Positions 2,327 to 64,000 of a DNA stretch of 64,000 nt are shown one piece after another. Source of the stretch: Octopus vulgaris (lineage: Eukaryota); NCBI GenBank assembly GCA_951406725.2, contig OX597814.1, forward strand, positions 121,024,001 to 121,088,000. Reading direction: 5' to 3'. Made by a program: the position numbers and the translations under genes. Numbering within the stretch: the stretch's first letter is position 1; every line of letters starts with the position of its first letter. The notes under the pieces were generated by a model. That model had not been told where the DNA came from and did not search any database. It worked only from the letters and a program-made list of their open reading frames with translations.

Positions 2327-2537
2327 GGCCTCTTGGAGCTAATCAGCGACAGTTTTAGTCTTATATTTATAGATTACCATATTAGTATGGCGATAACTAT
2401 TATTATCCAGTAACGCTGCCGTAATCTCCTTTAGAGAGACTTAGTAATTTTAATATTTCTATTATTGAAAACAAGTGGATGTATTCCACTGTAACTAGGT
2501 AAATAAAATCTTCGAACAGACGGTCAGTAGCGACACC
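2327..2537 (+). repeat. Retrozyme-like ~360-bp tandem unit, partial copy A
   Basis: GGCCTCTTGGAGCTAATCAGCGACAG...GTAACGCTGCCGTAATCTCC recurs at 4424-4528 and 6278-6417. The copy ends in TCAGTAGCGACACC. Confidence 0.8.
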
Positions 2538-4259
2538 CGCTTTTTGTTTTTGGTGACAGATATTTCTGATTGCGTTATTGTTGTGTAGCTGTATTTTTTG
2601 GCGTCGGAAAAATTTTGACTACGTTATTGTGGTGTAGCGGTTCGTGAGATCGAATCCGGTGGTGGAAGTTGTTACGGCGTGGTGAAGTTTTTGAGATTTT
2701 TTCACGAAAATGGAGACCCAGACGTATGCGGGTGCAGCAGGCAAGGGCCTGGTTGCGAAGGAGTTGCAGTTAGAAGAAGTCATCGTCGAGAAGGAGACTT
2801 TGAACAAGTATTTCGACAGCTTGAAGAGGGAGGTTGACTGTGTGAAGGTCACACCACCCGAAGAAGAAGCGGAAGAAGCGGAGAAACGGATTATAACGTA
2901 CAAAACATGGACCGTGACTTCGAAGAAAATAGAAGTGGCACCGATAGAGGAAGTTGAATGCTGTCTTAAAGGAATAGAAGCAGAGTCTACCTACTATAAC
3001 AGAGGTAGAAAGTTCGCAACGGTGGTCGTCCACTTTAAAAGTGAAGACGAGGCGAAGAAGAACGCAACGAAAATTTTAAAAACTGATAGATGGATGTGTT
3101 TACCAAGCTACTGCGGGAAAAGGGCAGTCAGAATAAGAATAAGCAAGATTTCGCCCGAACTAAATATGGAAAGGATTTTAGCAGCAGTGGTGTTTAATTG
3201 CAAAGAAAACGTGGAAATGTTGAAAGTCGAAAAATCAAAAGATGTAAATTGGTGGGGTTATGCAGTGCAGGCGTTAGTCCACATTACAATGCCTGACCTG
3301 TATAACATCCCGGAGGAGTTGGTGTTCCCCGACGAGACACGTCTCAGAGACGTGGTGGAGGGGAGACCCTCAGTGTGTCACAAATGCAAAATAAGAGGCC
3401 ACATGAAGGATGTGTGTCCGCTGAGAGAAGAACAGGAGAAAACGATAGTACTGGAGACTTTAACGAATGAGTTGCAAGATGCGTGTGTGGAGGAGGGAGA
3501 AATCGTTACTATAGATAATGCGGAAAGTGGTGAAGAGTTGGAGAGAGAAAATAGAAAAAGAACGCGGGTGGAATCACCACCCAAAGAACAAAAAAAGAAG
3601 AAGAAAAAAGCGAAAAACAAGATTACTGACGAGAAGGAAAACCGAACGGGAGAAGAGGATACAAAAGCAGAAGTGAGTGAACCGCTAAAAGCAGTTGAAG
3701 AATGGGACAGAAAATTGAAACAGCAGTTGAAAGCTTGTAAGAGAGGAGGAGGACTCAAGGGAAAGAAACACAGAGTGGCAATGTTATACGACAAGGACTT
3801 AAATTTGGAAAAGATGTTGCCAGGTAGGAAAGACTTAATTAGAGTAAAGTTGACCCCAGGAATATTTGATAAATATTGGAAGGCGGTAATAGTGGAGAAA
3901 GAGACGGTACGCAAATTGAAGGAATATAGCGCATTTGAATGGTTATATTTACGTTATGACACCTTACCAGCTGATGTGGATCAAGAAGGCTTACTAGAGT
4001 ATATAACAGACGAAAGACCAGTCTATGCTGACGAGTACCCGACGTAGCAGAGTAATATATGTAATTGTAAAATTGTAAATTGTGAAATTGTAATTTAAAT
4101 GAAACTGCGAGCTTTGGGGGGCTCGTAAGCCGTTCCATCTCATCCATTATAAATATCCATTTCAATTCATAATTTTCGATTTTTTTACTTTATGTACCCC
4201 ACGTCCTGTCTTGTAATGTCCCCTCTTAATTCGGGCCTTAGTGCCTATAATAAAGATTT
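2538..4259 (+). mobile_element. ORF1-only (non-autonomous) Tx1/L1-like retroelement, copy 1
   Basis: Flanked by direct repeat (T)CAGTAGCGACACC at 2524-2537 and 4259-4272. Contains a single ORF, a 3' UTR ending ...CCTATAATAAAGATT, and no RT or endonuclease. Confidence 0.7.
2710..4047 (+). CDS. Tx1/L1-type ORF1p (Gag-like nucleic-acid-binding protein, RRM-like region plus CCHC zinc knuckle), 445 aa
   Basis: Uninterrupted ORF. IPEELVFPDETRLRDVVEGRPSV-CHKCKIRGHMKDVC is Cx2Cx4Hx4C in a Tx1/ZCCHC3-like context. Basic NLS-like stretch RKRTR...KKKKKK. Confidence 0.8.
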   Translation: METQTYAGAAGKGLVAKELQLEEVIVEKETLNKYFDSLKREVDCVKVTPPEEEAEEAEKRIITYKTWTVTSKKIEVAPIEEVECCLKGIEAESTYYNRGRKFATVVVHFKSEDEAKKNATKILKTDRWMCLPSYCGKRAVRIRISKISPELNMERILAAVVFNCKENVEMLKVEKSKDVNWWGYAVQALVHITMPDLYNIPEELVFPDETRLRDVVEGRPSVCHKCKIRGHMKDVCPLREEQEKTIVLETLTNELQDACVEEGEIVTIDNAESGEELERENRKRTRVESPPKEQKKKKKKAKNKITDEKENRTGEEDTKAEVSEPLKAVEEWDRKLKQQLKACKRGGGLKGKKHRVAMLYDKDLNLEKMLPGRKDLIRVKLTPGIFDKYWKAVIVEKETVRKLKEYSAFEWLYLRYDTLPADVDQEGLLEYITDERPVYADEYPT

Positions 4260-4539
4260 CAGTAGCGACACCTGCGGGTCTGACTACGCTGCATTGATAA
4301 AGGGCAACAAACATGAAACATGTCTGCAGATGTCTGACTAGCAAGATGAAGCGGCTGACCTCCCCTGTTCGAAGGTTTGTAATGGACGCAGGTTCGTGTG
4401 TCATATAGCTAGCTAGAGGCGGTGGCCTCTTGGAGCTAATCAGCGACAGCTTTAGTCTTATATTTATAAGACTGCCATATTAGTATGGCGATAACTATTA
4501 ATATCCAGTAACGCTGCCGTAATCTCCTAGGTAAATAAA
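4260..4539 (+). repeat. Retrozyme-like unit, copy B (deleted at its 3' end)
   Basis: Highly similar to 6117-6417 and 2327-2505. Contains a hammerhead. Confidence 0.8.
4289..4329 (+). ncRNA. Type I hammerhead ribozyme, U3-A8 core variant, stem II damaged
   Basis: CTGCA-TTGATAA-AGGGC AACA AACAT-GAAAC AT GTC^TGCAG. Stem I is CTGCA/TGCAG. Stem II has three mismatches relative to the 6144 copy. Confidence 0.7.
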
Positions 4540-6116
4540 GCGTTATTGTTGAGTCGAAGTTGTGAGATCGAATTCGTTGGTGGAAGCGTTTGCGGCGCTG
4601 GGAATTTTTTTCTCAAAAATGCAAACCCAAACGTATGCGGGAGCGGCAGGCAAGGGCCTGGCTGCGAGCGAACTACAGTTGGAAGAAGTTACAGTCAAGA
4701 AGGAGATTTTGAAGAATTATTTCGACAGCTTGAAGAGAGAAGGTGACTGTGTGAGGATCACACCACCTGAAGAAGAAGAAGCGAAAGATTCAGAGAAACG
4801 TATTATAACATACAGAACGTGGAACGTGACTTCAAAGAAAGTAGAAGTGGCACCGATAGAGGAAATTGAGCGCTGTCTGAATGGAGTTGAAGGAGAACCT
4901 ACTTTCTATAATAGAGGTAGAAAATACGCAACAGTGGTCGTTCATTTTAAAAACGAAGACGAAGCGAAGAAGAACGCCACGCAAATACTGAACACAGAAA
5001 AATGGATGTTATTACCAAGTTATCGTGGAAAAAGGGCAGTAAGAATACGAATCAGTAAGATTTCGCCGGAGCTGAACATGGAAAGAATCTTAGCGGCAGT
5101 GGTATTCAACTGCAAAGAAAGCGTTGAAATATTGAAAGTAGAAAAATCGAAAGATGTACAGTGGTGGGGTTATGCGGTGCAGGCTTTGGTTCATATAACC
5201 ATACCAGACCTGTATAACATCCCAGAGGAGTTGGTGTTCCCCGACGAGACTCGACTCAGAGTCGTGGTGGAGAGGAGACCACCAGTGTGCTACAAGTGTA
5301 AAATTAGAGGCAACATGAAAGATGTGTGTCCGACGAGAATATTGGAAGCTCTGACAGAGATATTGCAAATGGCAGATGAAAAATGTGTAAACACAGAAAA
5401 TGAGGAAAGTGGTGACGAGTTGGAGAAAGGAATGGAAAACACAGAAGGAAAAGTAGATAGAAAGAGAGCGAGGGTGCAATCACCACCTAAAGTTCAAAAA
5501 AAGAAAAAAGCTAAAAATAAGACAATAGACGAGATGGAAGATCGAACGTGCGAAGATAAGAATACAAAAGCGAAAGCGAGAGAACCGGCAAATTTAACGG
5601 CAGACCAAGAATGGGGAAGAAGAGTGAAAGAGAAGTTAAAAGTATGTAAGGAAGGAAGAAGACCCGAAGGAAAAAAATCTTAAGGTAGTAATATTGTATA
5701 TGAAAGACAAAGAAATCGAAAAAAGACTGGCAGCTAAGAAAGGTTTAATCAGGGTTAGGCTGAATCCAAAAATATTTGATGACCAAGTGAAGTCGGCGGT
5801 TGTAGAGAAAGAGACATTTATAAAATTGAAAAGTGTGTTTTCGACTGTTTGTGAAATGCAATATATCCGTTATGACAGTTTGCCAGCGATTGTAGACCAG
5901 GAGAAGTTAATAGAATACATTACAGATGAACGCTCAGTATAGCAGAACTGTATTTTAAATGAAACTACGAGTTTTGGGGGGCTCGTAAGCCATTCCATTT
6001 AATTCATTACAAATAATTCATTTTCATATTTTTCGATTTCTTAAATTTATGTACCCCATGTCCTATTTTGTAATATCACCTCTTAATTCGGGCCATCGTA
6101 CCTATAATAAAGATAA
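4540..6116 (+). mobile_element. ORF1-only Tx1/L1-like retroelement, copy 2 (5'-shortened)
   Basis: Paralogous to 2538-4259. Same 3' end (CCTATAATAAAGAT) abutting TAGCGACACC of the next repeat unit. Confidence 0.7.
4619..5942 (+). pseudogene. Second ORF1p paralogue. One +1 frameshift in an A7 run (~5671-5677), and knuckle His replaced by Asn.
   Basis: MQTQTYAGAAGKGLA... aligns with copy 1. Knuckle reads CYKCKIRGNMKDVC. ORF 5694-5942 matches the copy 1 C-terminus (RYDSLPAIVDQEKLIEYITDER). Confidence 0.8.
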
Positions 6117-6412
6117 TAGCGACACCTGCGGGTCTGACTATGGTGCATTGATAAAGGGCAACAGCCCTGAAACATGTCTGCAGATGTCTGACTAGCAAGG
6201 TGAAGAGGCTGACCTCCCCTGTTCGAAGGTTTGTAATGGACGCAGGTTCGTGTGTCAAATAGCTAGCTAGAGGCGATGGCCTCTTGAAGCTAATCAGCGA
6301 CAGCTTTAGTCTTATATTTATAGACTACCACATTAGTATGACGGTAACTATTAATATCCAGTAACGCTGCCGTAATCTTCTTTAGAGAGACTTAGTAATT
6401 TTAATATTTCTA

Positions 6413-6417
<5 letters not shown>
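6117..6417 (+). repeat. Retrozyme-like unit, copy C, ending in (TA)n
   Basis: Direct repeat of 4263-4528 and 2327-2465. Confidence 0.8.
6144..6182 (+). ncRNA. Type I minimal hammerhead ribozyme, U3-A8 variant, apparently intact
   Basis: TGCA-TTGATAA-AGGGC AACA GCCCT-GAAAC AT GTC^TGCA. Perfect 5-bp stem II, palindromic ACATGT stem III, GUC cleavage triplet (cut after 6178). Confidence 0.85.
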
Positions 6418-34346: not shown

Positions 34347-34493
34347 GAAATAGAAAGATGAATAATCTTGTTGCAGATTAATCAAAAGTTTAACCGATAC
34401 CTTGGTAGCAAAAATCACAGCAGAAGACAGCACGGTTAGAGGTACAACCATATGGTGTTGCAACCGTGCGTTGGTGCGGATAATTGAATTTTA

Positions 34494-35175
34494 ATATTAT
34501 TAGTGAATTGAAGAAATGGAGTTGAACGAAGATTGAACAGAAATCGTTTTATTGCATTCTGCGTTCGCGAACCGACTGGCCCGGACGCGACGGCGTGCCG
34601 CCGCCGGGCTCGCGCGGGCCGAGCCGACCGGGTCACCGCCGCCGCTCCGCAACCGACGCCGCAACCACGCCGCGACCGCCCCCGCGAGGTGGACGGCAGC
34701 CGGACGCGGCCGCAGCACCGGACGCGAAGGAGAGCGGTGGCAACGGCAAGCCCGGGCCGCGCGCGGAGCTACCGACGACGGCTTCGGCGCCGCTGCGCTA
34801 CCGGAAAAGCACTAATCGACGATTAGCGCGTCGATTAGTGCTTTTCCGGTAGCGCGGCGGCGCCGAAGCCGTCGTCGGTAGCTCCGCGCGCGGCCCGGGC
34901 TTGCCGTTGCCGCCGCTCTCCTTCGCGTCCGGCGCTGCGGCCGCGTCCGGCGCTGCGGCCGCGTCCGGCTGCCGTCCGCCCTCGCGGGGGCGGTCGCGGC
35001 GTGGTTGCGGCGTCGGTTGCGGAGCGGTGGCGGTGACCCGGTCGGCTCGGCCCGCGCGAGCCCGGCGGCGGCACGCCGTCGCGTCCGGGCCAGTCGGTTG
35101 GCGAACGCAGAATGCAATAAAACGATTTCTGTTCAATCTTCGTTCAACTCCATTTCTTCAATTCACTAATAATAT
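34494..35175. repeat. GC-rich fold-back element, arms ~330-350 bp, 7-nt loop (34822-34828)
   Basis: The arms are near-perfect reverse complements from TATTATTAGTGAATTGAAG to GCACTAATCGACG. Confidence 0.95.
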
Positions 35176-35184
35176 ATATTCACT

Positions 35185-35357: not shown

Positions 35358-36059
35358 CATATATGAACCGGATCCTTGAAACACATACCATCATTAAAAG
35401 TAAACGGCAACCAAAATCCTTGAAAAGGATTTTAACCCAAGCTACACTGCACTCAACATCAACCACAAAACCAGCAGTTAGAAAATGTGGAAGGCCCACC
35501 CTCGGAATCTGTGTCATCTTGAAAGAAGGATCAGAATTTATACTGGAACAAGGCCACCAGTTCACCATTAGAACAAACTTCACCTGCGCATCAGAAAACT
35601 TAATTTACGTCATAACATGCGCAGGCTGCAATAGGCAGTATATAGGCCATACAAAAAATAGCTTACGTAACAGGATGGCGGTGCATAAATCACAAATTAG
35701 AAACCCTGATTACCGCAAAATACCGGTCAGCGGACACATAGATAGATGTGCTGGAAATGTAAATCCGAACTTTACAACTAACCCGCTCTATAAATTCAGT
35801 GACAACGCAACCTTCACACAACGCCAAAATAAAGAACTATATTTCATAAAAAAATTTAGACCAAGTTTAAACACCCTGGGCCAGGAATACTAAAACAAAA
35901 GATAAGTCCTCCGAAAAGGAGAAGCAAAATTCCACCACGACCGCTACTTTAAACAGACACTCGCTCTGACGGAAATATGCCTTAGTAAAAAAAGGAAAAA
36001 AATTCTTTCGTGCAAATCTGACCCTGATACATACGATACAGCTAAGGGTCAGACCCGAT

Positions 36060-54849: not shown

Positions 54850-57452
<2,603 letters not shown>

Positions 57453-57795
57453 ACATAAGGGGGATCAGCCATCTGAATGTGGCTAGGGTCAGGGCGGGGT
57501 GGTGGGGGTGTTACTGATGCATTTAGCGCCAGGCGAACATCAACGTATACGTTGATGCTTTTTTCCAAGGAATCTAATGCTCTTAGTTTAGTTTTTTTTC
57601 TTGGGGCTGGCAAGATTGGAGCAATCTGAAGGTTAATCAGCCGAAATTGCGAGGATGATCCGGTTCTTGACTGAGGATAAACAGCTTCGAATGACCCGTC
57701 CTTGTTTTTCTTTTATATCGTCTATCTGGATGTTTTGTTGTCCCCTTTTTGTATCACCTAGTTGTACGGATGTTTTGCGTTCTTGTCCCAATTTG

Positions 57796-57836
<41 letters not shown>

Positions 57837-57847
57837 TGAATTGAAGA

Positions 57848-57897
<50 letters not shown>

Positions 57898-58056
57898 GCA
57901 GGAGTAGCTGTGTAAGTAGCTTGTTTACCAACCGCATGCTTTCGGGTTCAGTCCCACTGCGTGGCACCTTGGGCAAGTGTCTTCTACTATAGCCTCGGGC
58001 CGACCAAAGCCTTGTGAGTGGATTTGGTAGACGGAAACTGGAAGAAGCCAGTCGTG

Positions 58057-58095
<39 letters not shown>

Positions 58096-58101
58096 GTGTG
58101 A

Positions 58102-58140
<39 letters not shown>

Positions 58141-58614
58141 TATGCATATATGTATATACATAAATACACGCATACATATACGCATATATACACACACACA
58201 TACATACATACATACATACATACATACATACATACATACAATACAATACAAAGATATTCTTGAGTGACAGTTGGAAATAGACGTTTGAGAGTAAAGAATT
58301 TCAGATGATATGTTTTTAGGCAATAGCTATTACTAAATGCAAAAAAAAAATCTAAGTGGAAAAGAATAATCGTATCGATCGGGGAAAGCTTAAAAAGTAT
58401 GCAAAAATGTACATGTAGTTATAGAGAGAATAAGGATTGCATTGGCCTCTTAAATTGTCATGGGATAATGAATATTTTAATGGAATGTGTAAGATCAGCA
58501 AACAGTACAAGAAATACATGCTGTTTGTTCCATACTAAGGGATAAATAAATCATATTTAATTATACTATGCAGCACACATAGACGCACACCAGCATGTAC
58601 AAACACAGATACAT

Positions 58615-60221
<1,607 letters not shown>

Positions 60222-60302
60222 TCCCGGGTTGATTCGGGGTTAACCACAGTAAGTAAGGTACTCAATACATAGCAGAGTAAAATTAATTTATTATATAGAA
60301 GG

Positions 60303-60353
60303 AGCTTCTACAGGACTAGTACTGTTTCATTCAAGAGAAATCTTCAGGAAGCT
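60303..60353 (-). ncRNA. Type I hammerhead ribozyme with full stem III
   Basis: Reverse complement of 63268-63318. Confidence 0.85.
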
Positions 60354-60737
60354 ATTTAACAAGAATTGTATTAGCATTTATACATTTAGAGGAGTGGTGG
60401 TGGGGGACTTTTTGGGGGTAGGCATAGCGCAAAATATCATACTTGGGGGGAGTGGTCAAGGTAATAAAAAAAATAAAAAAATAAAAAATAAAAAAAAAAA
60501 TAAAAGAATAAAAATAAAAAATATAAAAAATATAAAAAATATAAAAAATATAAAAAATATAAAAAATATATATAAAAAAATATATAAAAAAATATATATA
60601 TATAAAATATATATATAAAATATATATATATAAAAAAAAGGGGGGAAAGAGTTATAGGTAAATAAGGAGATTCTCACTTATACCTATACACACATGAATA
60701 CGTATCTACACACACATACGCACATACACATATATCT

Positions 60738-60794
<57 letters not shown>

Positions 60795-61172
60795 CCTACA
60801 CATACACACATACATACATACAAATATACATATACATACATATATATACAATCCAATACAGGCCCATTCCCTAATTTTAATTTTATTATCTTCATTTATT
60901 ACTTTTGTTATCTTTGATCGCTAAGGCTAAGAATCCTGGCAATAGCTGCTTGTCCGTTTGTCTGTCTACTAGAAGGCAAGTACTCATTCCCGCACGCACA
61001 CTCATTAGCACGTACATTCACCCATTCGTACACTCATACACATACACGTACGCACGCGTTATATTCATACATACAAACATCTACATACGTTCACGTATAT
61101 ACACATACGTACTCGTACCTACAGATTCGTGTCTACACTTTAGGAGGCTAGTCTATACATATACACCAATAA

Positions 61173-61204
<32 letters not shown>

Positions 61205-61254
61205 CGCACATACATACACACACACACATATATACTCCTACATACAGATACATA

Positions 61255-61304
<50 letters not shown>

Positions 61305-61730
61305 TATATACATACATACACATACATACACATACACACATACACACATACACACACATACATACACATATATATACATACCCAAACATATATACACACG
61401 CATATATATACATACACACATACACACATGTATATATATGTATATATGCATGCGTATGTGTATGTACATGTAGGTATGTATGTGTGTATATGTATATATG
61501 TCTATAAATGTGAGTATGTAGTAATATAAGTATATGCATGTGTATGTATGGGTATGTGTATCAGTGTATATGTATATATGTATATGTGTGTGTGTATGTA
61601 TATGTATGTATATGTGTATATATGTATGCGTATATGTGTATATATATATATATGTATATATATATATGTGTATATGTGTGTGTACGTATGTGTATGTGTA
61701 TGTATGTGTATATGTGTCTATGTATGTATA

Positions 61731-61796
<66 letters not shown>

Positions 61797-62075
61797 TGCG
61801 TGTGTGTATGTATGCATATATGTATGTATGCATGTATATGTGTATGTATATATATGTGTGTAAGTGTGTGCATATATGTATTTGTAAGTATGTGTGCGCG
61901 TATGAGTATGTATGTATGCTTGCACACGTGTATATATATATGTGTGTGTGTGTATTTATATGGATGCGCGTGCGTGTGTGCACGTGTATGGGTACGCATG
62001 TATATGTGTATGTGCGTGTATGCGTATACGTGTATGTATGTATGTGTGTGCGTAGATTTGTATATGTATGTGTGA

Positions 62076-62114
<39 letters not shown>

Positions 62115-62324
62115 TATAGATGGGTGTGTGTATGCGTATAAATGCATGTAAGTATGGATGTATAGATGTATGTATGTATGTATACGTATGTATGTGTGTA
62201 TGTGTGTATGTATATATATGCGTGTGTATATATGTTTGGGTATGTATATATATGTGTATGTATGTGTGTGTATGTGTGTATGTGTGTATGTGTATGTATG
62301 TGTATGTATGTATATATATATGTA

Positions 62325-62368
<44 letters not shown>

Positions 62369-62827
62369 TATGTATCTGTATGTAGGAGTATATATGTGTG
62401 TGTGTGTATGTATGTGCGGGTATATATATATATATATATATATGTATATTTATTGGTGTATATGTATAGACTAGCCTCCTAAAGTGTAGACACGAATCTG
62501 TAGGTACGAGTACGTATGTGTATATACGTGAACGTATGTAGATGTTTGTATGTATGAATATAACGCGTGCGTACGTGTATGTGTATGAGTGTACGAATGG
62601 GTGAATGTACGTGCTAATGAGTGTGCGTGCGGGAATGAGTACTTGCCTTCTAGTAGACAGACAAACGGACAAGCAGCTATTGCCAGGATTCTTAGCCTTA
62701 GCGATCAAAGATAACAAAAGTAATAAATGAAGATAATAAAATTAAAATTAGGGAATGGGCCTGTATTGGATTGTATATATATGTATGTATATGTATATTT
62801 GTATGTATGTATGTGTGTATGTGTAGG

Positions 62828-62884
<57 letters not shown>

Positions 62885-63267
62885 AGATATATGTGTATGT
62901 GCGTATGTGTGTGTAGATACGTATACATGTGTGTATAGGTATAAGTGAGAATCTCCTTATTTACCTATAACTCTTTCCCCCTTTTTTTTATATATATATA
63001 TTTTATATATATATTTTATATATATATATTTTTTTATATATTTTTTTATATATATTTTTTATATTTTTTATATTTTTTATATTTTTTATATTTTTTATAT
63101 TTTTTATTTTTATTCTTTTATTTTATTTTTTTATTTTTTATTTTTTTATTTTTTTATTACCTTGACCACTCCCCCAAGTATGATATTTTGCGCTATGCCT
63201 ACCCCCAAAAAAGTCCCCCACCACCACTCCTCTAAATGTATAAATGCTAATACAATTCTTGTTAAAT

Positions 63268-63318
63268 AGCTTCCTGAAGATTTCTCTTGAATGAAACAGT
63301 ACTAGTCCTGTAGAAGCT
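63268..63318 (+). ncRNA. Type I hammerhead ribozyme with full stem III
   Basis: AGCTTC-CTGAAGA-TTTC TCTT GAAT-GAAACAG TACTAGTC CTGTA^GAAGCT, with AATAAA ~10 nt downstream. Confidence 0.85.
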
Positions 63319-63329
63319 CCTTCTATATA

Positions 63330-64000
<671 letters not shown>

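Follow-up and report, generated by a model that had tools for sequence, protein, structure and literature searches.

ORF1-only elements and autonomous LINEs share insertion sites upstream of predicted hammerheads in Octopus vulgaris retrozymes

A 64,000-nucleotide stretch of the Octopus vulgaris genome (contig OX597814.1, positions 121,024,001 to 121,088,000, forward strand; hereafter the window) contains, at positions 2327–6417, three partial copies of a 362-bp repeat unit with a type I hammerhead ribozyme motif, separated by two inserts that encode a protein resembling ORF1p, the first open reading frame product of long interspersed nuclear elements (LINEs). This alternating layout of repeat, ORF1a, repeat, ORF1b and repeat was noticed in an original prediction made from the letters alone, and it is borne out by our analysis, for which the 2.8-Gb genome (227 contigs) was searched. 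The features of the locus are listed below; unit numbering follows an intact copy at locus L012, and TSD stands for target-site duplication.

2327–2540 (+): retrozyme unit positions 165–362 (the array begins here, 5′-truncated) plus the upstream TSD copy
2524–2540 (+): left copy of the TSD, 17 bp; the right copy lies at 4259–4275 and has one mismatch
2541–4258 (+): ORF1-only element copy 1, full length (~1.72 kb), with T-rich 5′ end, ORF1 and 3′ untranslated region (UTR)
2710–4047 (+): ORF1a, an open frame of 445 amino acids (aa) with two RRM-like domains, a CCHC knuckle and a C-terminal domain
4260–4539 (+): retrozyme unit 1–268, a ~66-bp deletion, then 11 more unit bases
4289–4329 (+): type I hammerhead (copy 1) of the U3-A8 core variant, with disrupted stem II and a predicted cut after 4324
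4540–6116 (+): ORF1-only element copy 2, of another subfamily, 5′-truncated and without an upstream TSD
4619–5942 (+): ORF1b, decayed, consisting of 354 aa (4619–5683), a frameshift and an 80-aa C-terminal piece (5700–5942)
6117–6417 (+): retrozyme unit 4–303, with its usual AT-rich 3′ end abutting a (TA)n run
6143–6183 (+): type I hammerhead copy 2, structurally intact, with 5-bp stem II, palindromic short stem III and predicted cut after 6178

Both window ORFs carry a CCHC knuckle and neither insert encodes a reverse transcriptase (RT) or endonuclease, as had been claimed; the description of both as ORF1p genes needs amending for ORF1b, which is frameshifted and has Asn in place of the knuckle His. 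The 3′ UTR of copy 1 ends with a short hairpin, AATAAA (4249–4254) and GAT, without poly(A). Insert 2 lost its upstream TSD along with ~66 bp of the unit. Between the two ORFs, synonymous divergence (dS) amounts to 0.78; they are 83.5% identical over the 5′ part and fall into different ORF1 clades, whereas the units flanking the inserts are 94.3% alike. Since the inserts are far more diverged than their flanks, they represent two independent insertions and not a simple local duplication.

The unit had been rebuilt on paper by joining 4260–4423 to 2327–2524, and precisely this 362-bp sequence occurs as a natural empty copy (L012:1498–1859). It is abundant, with 2293 candidates in the genome (40 scored), and forms arrays of one to three units. 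A census of empty and filled sites found no insert within 1.5 kb at 28 of the 30 best unit loci, and exact matches to the empty junction number 273 genome-wide, some of them counted twice. Empty arrays consist of incomplete tandem copies, in many cases with the 5′ piece inverted, and they end at two AT-rich positions against (TA)n. In loci L002–L030 their inversion and start points often lie at unit positions 101–116, the end of a long self-complementary stem, and this clustering suggests template switching on folded RNA. The unit is non-coding: the sole window frame overlapping it has 80 codons on the minus strand, and no match to the ORF element surrounds 28 of the 30 loci. Related families of 360–380 bp (B–E) exist, and the retrozyme families are mutually homologous.

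Hammerheads had been placed at 4289 and 6144; we find their cores at 4294 and 6148, and recomputation gave the same predicted cuts (after 4324 and after 6178), 1854 nt apart. In a structural scan of both window strands, the 6148 hammerhead alone passes; the copy at 4294 fails at stem II and is, judging from its sequence, probably inactive. The motif is of type I, with the U3-A8 core variant, a stem II of 4–5 bp and a short palindromic stem III, an architecture that one report, in its accessible text, ascribes to metazoan hammerheads acting as dimers (PMC4209133). Its helices covary, the 3-8 core pair included: 94.9% of cells are paired, 11 of 13 pairs show double changes, and 0 of 500 shuffles scored as high, on a set of 12 hand-picked sequences from five families on which the structure itself had been drawn, so that this control is a favourable one. 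Neither the window nor 19 loci gave an Rfam hammerhead match, and folded in isolation the hammerheads do not surpass shuffled sequences (z −0.04 to −1.4). The 362-nt monomer reaching from cut to cut folds better than all of 100 shuffles (z = −7.2), and the insertion site lies within a long stem of this predicted fold that extends helix I. Contigs of four sequencing runs, only guessed to be RNA and uninformative on ends, strand, level and circles, span the unit, include portions of both ORFs and run across the empty junction. We class the unit as a metazoan non-LTR (non-long terminal repeat) retrozyme, for which self-cleavage and circular RNA are predicted.

An insertion pattern of this kind, with partial tandems, 5′ inversions and (TA)n targets, recalls Penelope-like elements (PLEs) as far as the accessible text on them goes (PMC8557442), and PLEs are abundant in this genome. 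We nevertheless give hardly any credence to the unit being the pseudo-LTR of a known PLE and the locus a local duplication: units match none of 20 GIY-YIG 3′ flanks (900 bp each, of 148 matches) nor the PLE fragment in the window, empty arrays are devoid of the ORF, and the two window ORFs are as divergent as described above. The fragment in question, the 3′ part of a PLE at 35363–35890 (+), was recognized by its GIY-YIG domain (E 3e-7) and is unlike the retrozyme units.

The ORF1-only element is likewise multicopy, with at least 150 matches (150 scored). In ORF1a, two RRM-like domains (residues ~50–137 and 137–220) precede the CCHC knuckle (223–236), an acidic/basic linker and the C-terminal domain; the RRM-like domains come from a structure model whose best Z of about 9 concerns a common fold. 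Pfam zf-CCHC was found in 18 of 22 family members at E values of up to 1. Single ORFs gave nothing significant against Pfam, a word-indexed homologue search with the ORF gave no match, and in a PDB sequence search knuckles alone were matched, with no L1 ORF1p among the matches. The ORF1 of an autonomous LINE with endonuclease and RT in the same genome is 34% identical over 208 aa, and on such sequence similarity we regard the insert ORF as a LINE ORF1p. ORF2 matches in the fetched loci belong to adjacent elements or to a separate relic LINE, L136. Of ten ORF1 relatives looked up, eight were named, all octopod (7/8 Octopus, 1/8 Argonauta); together with the PDB result, this speaks against descent from mammalian L1, as for HAL1 proper. 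The protein is under purifying selection, with a median ratio of nonsynonymous to synonymous divergence (dN/dS) of 0.12 over residues 1–240 in 106 pairs that are not independent of each other. The 3′ end of the copies is made up of a hairpin, AATAAA and a final triplet, GA(T/G), with no poly(A), and the 3′ junction bases are fixed within subfamilies.

The position of these ends relative to the hammerhead was determined for 126 ends in the fetched loci, three of which were dropped for short flanks. Among the 87 ends of tail class H, 31 are followed by a strict hammerhead, 23 by a core only (one of these calls is dubious) and 33 by other sequence; inspected by eye, the latter comprise 16 copies stacked on an element at a retrozyme site, four mutated units and 13 unrelated sites. 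For tail class G, whose ORF1 is near-identical, a core was found at 1 of 36 ends. Random positions gave a strict hammerhead in 0 of 5000 cases and a loose one in 135 of 5000. Genome-wide, 277 exact class-H ends were identified (control: 3), and 105 of them have an exact hammerhead core 15–40 nt downstream (control: 0), in several related retrozyme families, so that ORF1 copies elsewhere are linked to the hammerhead repeat. An upstream duplicate of the target was present at 63 of 88 ends, mostly of 14–21 bp with a mode of 17 bp, about five of these being the previous unit and not a TSD. Copies outside the units exist as well; eight off-target copies have their own 14–20-bp TSDs in non-retrozyme DNA. 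This combination of ends, cores, TSDs and off-target copies with TSDs characterizes a LINE derivative with a specific insertion site. The G-tail ORF1 clade is nested within the retrozyme-targeting clade, and since cores follow 54/87 H-tails vs 1/36 G-tails with near-identical ORF1, it is the tail, not ORF1, that tracks the target. Some G-tailed elements (L091, L093 and L095) lie at the 5′ ends of other elements in head-to-tail arrays; the 1.8-kb copies in these are 98–99% identical, and short poly(A) is present on some of them.

A search for an autonomous element with ORF1 and ORF2, proposed along with the original prediction, revealed autonomous LINEs stacked with ORF1-only copies at identical sites. 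One of them, L213, has ORF1 and an open ORF2 frame of 1134 codons and ends on a hammerhead site. These LINEs are ~5.3 kb long and encode an ORF1 with zinc knuckle and an ORF2 comprising an APE endonuclease, RT and a C-terminal zinc motif. Among 20 of the best copies of the L213 family, 14 have a hammerhead core 29–32 nt downstream, three are followed by a U2 small nuclear RNA (snRNA) gene (Rfam 179–185 bits), two by a target duplicate and another element and one by other DNA. Twenty remoter relatives end at family B (six), a family-A-like site (four), family D (one) or elsewhere (eight), with no end found for one. Taking the L213 family and its relatives on retrozymes together, the core lies 28–36 nt away. 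A family-A partner occupies the window's own type of site and has ORF1, a 1140-codon ORF2 frame, an upstream TSD and tandem units.

The best solved relative of ORF2 is human L1 ORF2p (E 1.6e-58; R2, 4e-22). A tree of the ORF2 C-terminal part, which holds only families of this genome and two outgroups, groups the family A, B and C copies with the U2 copy (support 0.95) and places the family D copy with other targets. From the domains and the site specificity, the partners appear to be of the Tx1 type.

Other LINEs of this genome have other destinations. L151, the first autonomous LINE found, was ruled out as a partner: 0 of 27 ends lie at a hammerhead core in a sister family, which targets the ORF1 of another transposon. 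A partner-end pattern for site A in which AATAAAG was disallowed had 12 matches vs 10 in controls; it failed because partners end in AATAAAG too. The autonomous family that targets retrozyme family C was also seen ~7 nt before the first U2 base, in L218, L220 and L223 (G000 C3:20817412, C3:20833034 and C23:43315454), and in L219 a U2-derived duplicate is followed by a retrozyme-target remnant at the 5′ end of the next element. A young autonomous L1/Tx1-type family (L171–L200; many 1132-codon ORF2 frames, 98% alike) is site-specific in ORF1-like sequence of another transposon family, with two copies at the tRNA-like head of a short interspersed element (SINE). A family with a 1148-codon ORF2 (L249–L251) lies before a short repeat with complementary ends and a T run, which resembles a small RNA gene and has no Rfam match. 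L252 and L256 stand for two more LINE families, which have one further multicopy target in common.

Taken together, we consider it very probable that these elements form a three-level chain of parasites, in which a site-specific LINE exploits the retrozyme and an ORF1-only follower exploits the LINE. This corresponds to the first of two explanations offered originally, a non-autonomous family that targets retrozymes, and it is favored by the TSDs, the empty and filled sites, the off-target copies with TSDs, the genome-wide counts and the autonomous partners. Several observations weigh against it. By ORF1 identity, the element is nearer to the relic L136, a LINE unconnected to retrozymes with ORF2 left as fragments only (47% identity), than to the ORF1s of the presumed, hammerhead-targeting partners (27%), so that the partner link rests on the common site and tail architecture, not on descent; the ORF1-only family may have arisen by way of an intermediate such as L136. 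The likeness of the tails is itself one of architecture and not of strong sequence identity. For the subfamily with insertions 18–25 nt before the core, we found no partner. About 14 of the 87 class-H ends lie outside retrozymes in our reading by eye, and the exact genome-wide pattern captures 38% of ends, leaving 172.

The same sites could be chosen mainly through RNA or its structure and less through DNA sequence: a hammerhead would cut read-through RNA 50–70 nt past the element, and the target-derived tail or the helix-I stem would steer insertion. Sites do cluster 18–37 nt before the core across families of differing local sequence, the site lies in the long stem of the stably folding monomer, and the 3′ junction bases are fixed per subfamily. 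In addition, the truncated 5′ end of one ORF1-only element in family C (L224; G000 C16:20779803-20780303) is joined exactly at the predicted cut site, as a single case. For family A, four places came up when junctions at the cut site were sought, all of them point changes. Moreover, one autonomous family uses retrozymes as well as the 5′ end of U2, two targets whose shared feature is a short ATCG motif and not a hammerhead, close relatives target unrelated repeats, and a shared position is expected anyway because the retrozyme families are homologous. We therefore hold this mode of targeting to be unlikely.

The second of the original explanations was a protein-coding retrozyme, in which cleavage from one hammerhead to the next releases a coding monomer of 1854 nt. 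Several loci do indicate that the ORF element and the retrozyme were copied together. L157 and L168 contain a 5′-truncated ORF element without upstream unit or TSD and with normal retrozyme ends at (TA)n; L158 and L165 have similar structures, and at L142 (98% over 635 nt) and L123 inverted arms hold element plus unit. The rearranged leader–insert junction of the window recurs, so that it is present at four loci on four contigs and filled in 4/4; the inserts there are 95.5–96.9% alike, and the 5′ part of the leader matches each local array where visible. In the fourth junction copy (L289) the leader spans an uncut hammerhead; this locus stops 10 nt into the target and there abuts unrelated DNA, which is ambiguous between an off-target insertion and a later deletion. 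The loci point to composite RNAs that the retrozyme route now and then copies, or that are joined through homology; some of the co-copied structures could instead have been produced by subsequent deletions.

As the main mode of spread, monomers of 1.85–2.1 kb that circularize, encode their own RNA-binding protein and are propagated by the retrozyme RT would fit these loci, and a filled monomer is predicted to be still able to close stem I in a circular fold. Most elements, however, have TSDs, many are stacked element to element with no hammerhead between them, and some lie off-target with TSDs. Neighboring filled units are 72–92% alike and hence not rolling-circle copies, the shared leader is equally explained by read-through RNA with homologous 5′ joining, the L289 leader passes through its hammerhead uncut, and neither the 5′ hammerhead nor ORF1b of the window is intact, while the two inserts are not close copies of each other. 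At the loci examined, we saw no array in which identical filled monomers alternate with whole units. A coding retrozyme is thus quite improbable as the principal route, and what survives of this second explanation is its weaker form, the co-copied loci.

For the parasite chain that we favor, we propose the following course of events. The retrozyme superfamily (360–380 bp) spreads into (TA)n, perhaps moved by a Penelope-like RT, and provides the sites ~28–36 nt upstream of the core at which the autonomous L1/Tx1-type LINEs insert, the endonuclease of each LINE family presumably reading a short DNA motif. The ORF1-only element is probably transcribed by read-through from the retrozyme; its ORF1p would be made in cis, and ORF2p would be borrowed from the site-specific LINE via the 3′ tail, whose association with the target we observe and through which mobilization in trans could operate. 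A nick 18–37 nt before the hammerhead core would start target-primed reverse transcription, and RNA running into the target may aid priming, which would explain the exact, poly(A)-less and subfamily-specific 3′ junctions. A second nick ~17 bp further on would create the 14–21-bp duplication and keep the downstream hammerhead intact. Occasionally, composite RNA may be copied by the retrozyme route and carry the ORF element along, as at least five locus structures suggest.

The ribozyme could have a larger part in this. Conceivably, the retrozyme promoter transcribes LINEs and followers and the hammerheads free their RNA, giving either a target-matching tail or a circle of 1.8–2.1 kb, with two routes of spread, LINE-type target priming and retrozyme-type copying. 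We put this forward as a tentative idea that we rather doubt; if true, the ORF1-only element copied by the retrozyme route would in effect be a protein-coding circular RNA element.

Elsewhere in the window, we noted an RT fragment of another LINE at 450–1301 (−) (RVT_1, E 4e-23), a large GC-rich palindrome followed by (TA)n at 34370–35180 (+), and long TA/TG microsatellite blocks at 55000–64000, the source of spurious Rfam microRNA matches.

Several components of the system have known counterparts, as far as the accessible text of the papers cited below goes. LINEs of the Tx1 clade target transposons, snRNA genes, microsatellites and satellites and have non-coding followers (PMC4494074), examples being Tx1L in Tx1D, Keno in U2, Kibi/Koshi and Tx1-Mar (PMC4494074, PMC4640811); a tree legend in PMC4494074 names a "satellite" target whose identity could not be made out. 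The octopus LINEs resemble them in their APE-type endonuclease and RT, in a fixed multicopy target that may be a transposon and in tandem stacking around the TSD, and differ in that their target is a ribozyme-bearing retrozyme. Both the octopus family and Keno use U2 genes, the octopus site lying ~7 nt before the first base of the gene; Keno reportedly inserts inside U2. SINEU, which follows Tx1-Mar (PMC4494074), is likewise a non-autonomous follower at the target of a Tx1-type LINE; it is non-coding with an snRNA head, whereas the octopus follower codes for an ORF1p under selection and has exchanged both its tails and its targets. HAL1 (half-L1; PMC5753468) is also a non-autonomous LINE derivative with ORF1p only. 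Unlike HAL1, the octopus family is site-specific and lacks poly(A). HAL1 is said to derive from mammalian L1 and to have no site specificity.

On the retrozyme side, the metazoan non-LTR retrozymes (PMC7229834; bioRxiv 10.64898/2026.07.22.740005) are likewise non-coding tandem units of a few hundred bp with one type I hammerhead per unit and a short palindromic helix III. Their accounts, in the text accessible, mention no insertion family or ORF, whereas the octopus units are LINE targets and sometimes carriers. PLEs and Terminons (PMC8557442, PMC6431247, PMC4209133) share hammerheads in repeats, partial tandem and inverted insertions, a microsatellite bias and the carriage of extra ORFs; the octopus ORF encodes a LINE ORF1p and comes in through an insertion of its own that makes a TSD, and no PLE RT lies in the element. 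Our literature searches turned up no description of LINEs or half-LINEs that target hammerhead retrozymes, but Repbase, figures, supplements and subscription papers lay outside this search and could record such a target. Papers retrieved with "hammerhead" and "Tx1" include none on retrozyme targeting, judged by title, and the main text of an octopus repeat-annotation paper (PMC13282606) does not mention hammerhead, retrozyme or ORF1. Targeted Tx1-type LINEs, their followers and half-LINEs are thus known, and the retrozyme as their target is apparently undescribed.

With this target, retrozymes join the list of those used by site-specific LINEs, and the ORF1-only element becomes a parasite of a parasite of a parasite. 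The genome offers a natural series of close endonucleases (~80–97% alike in the C-terminal part of ORF2) whose targets are retrozyme families, U2 genes and other repeats, alongside ORF1-only elements in which the target changes with the 3′ tail. This makes it testable what sets the target choice of a LINE and why half-LINEs keep ORF1p. Since a carried ORF element marks the copied template, it may also provide a handle on how retrozyme RNA is copied.

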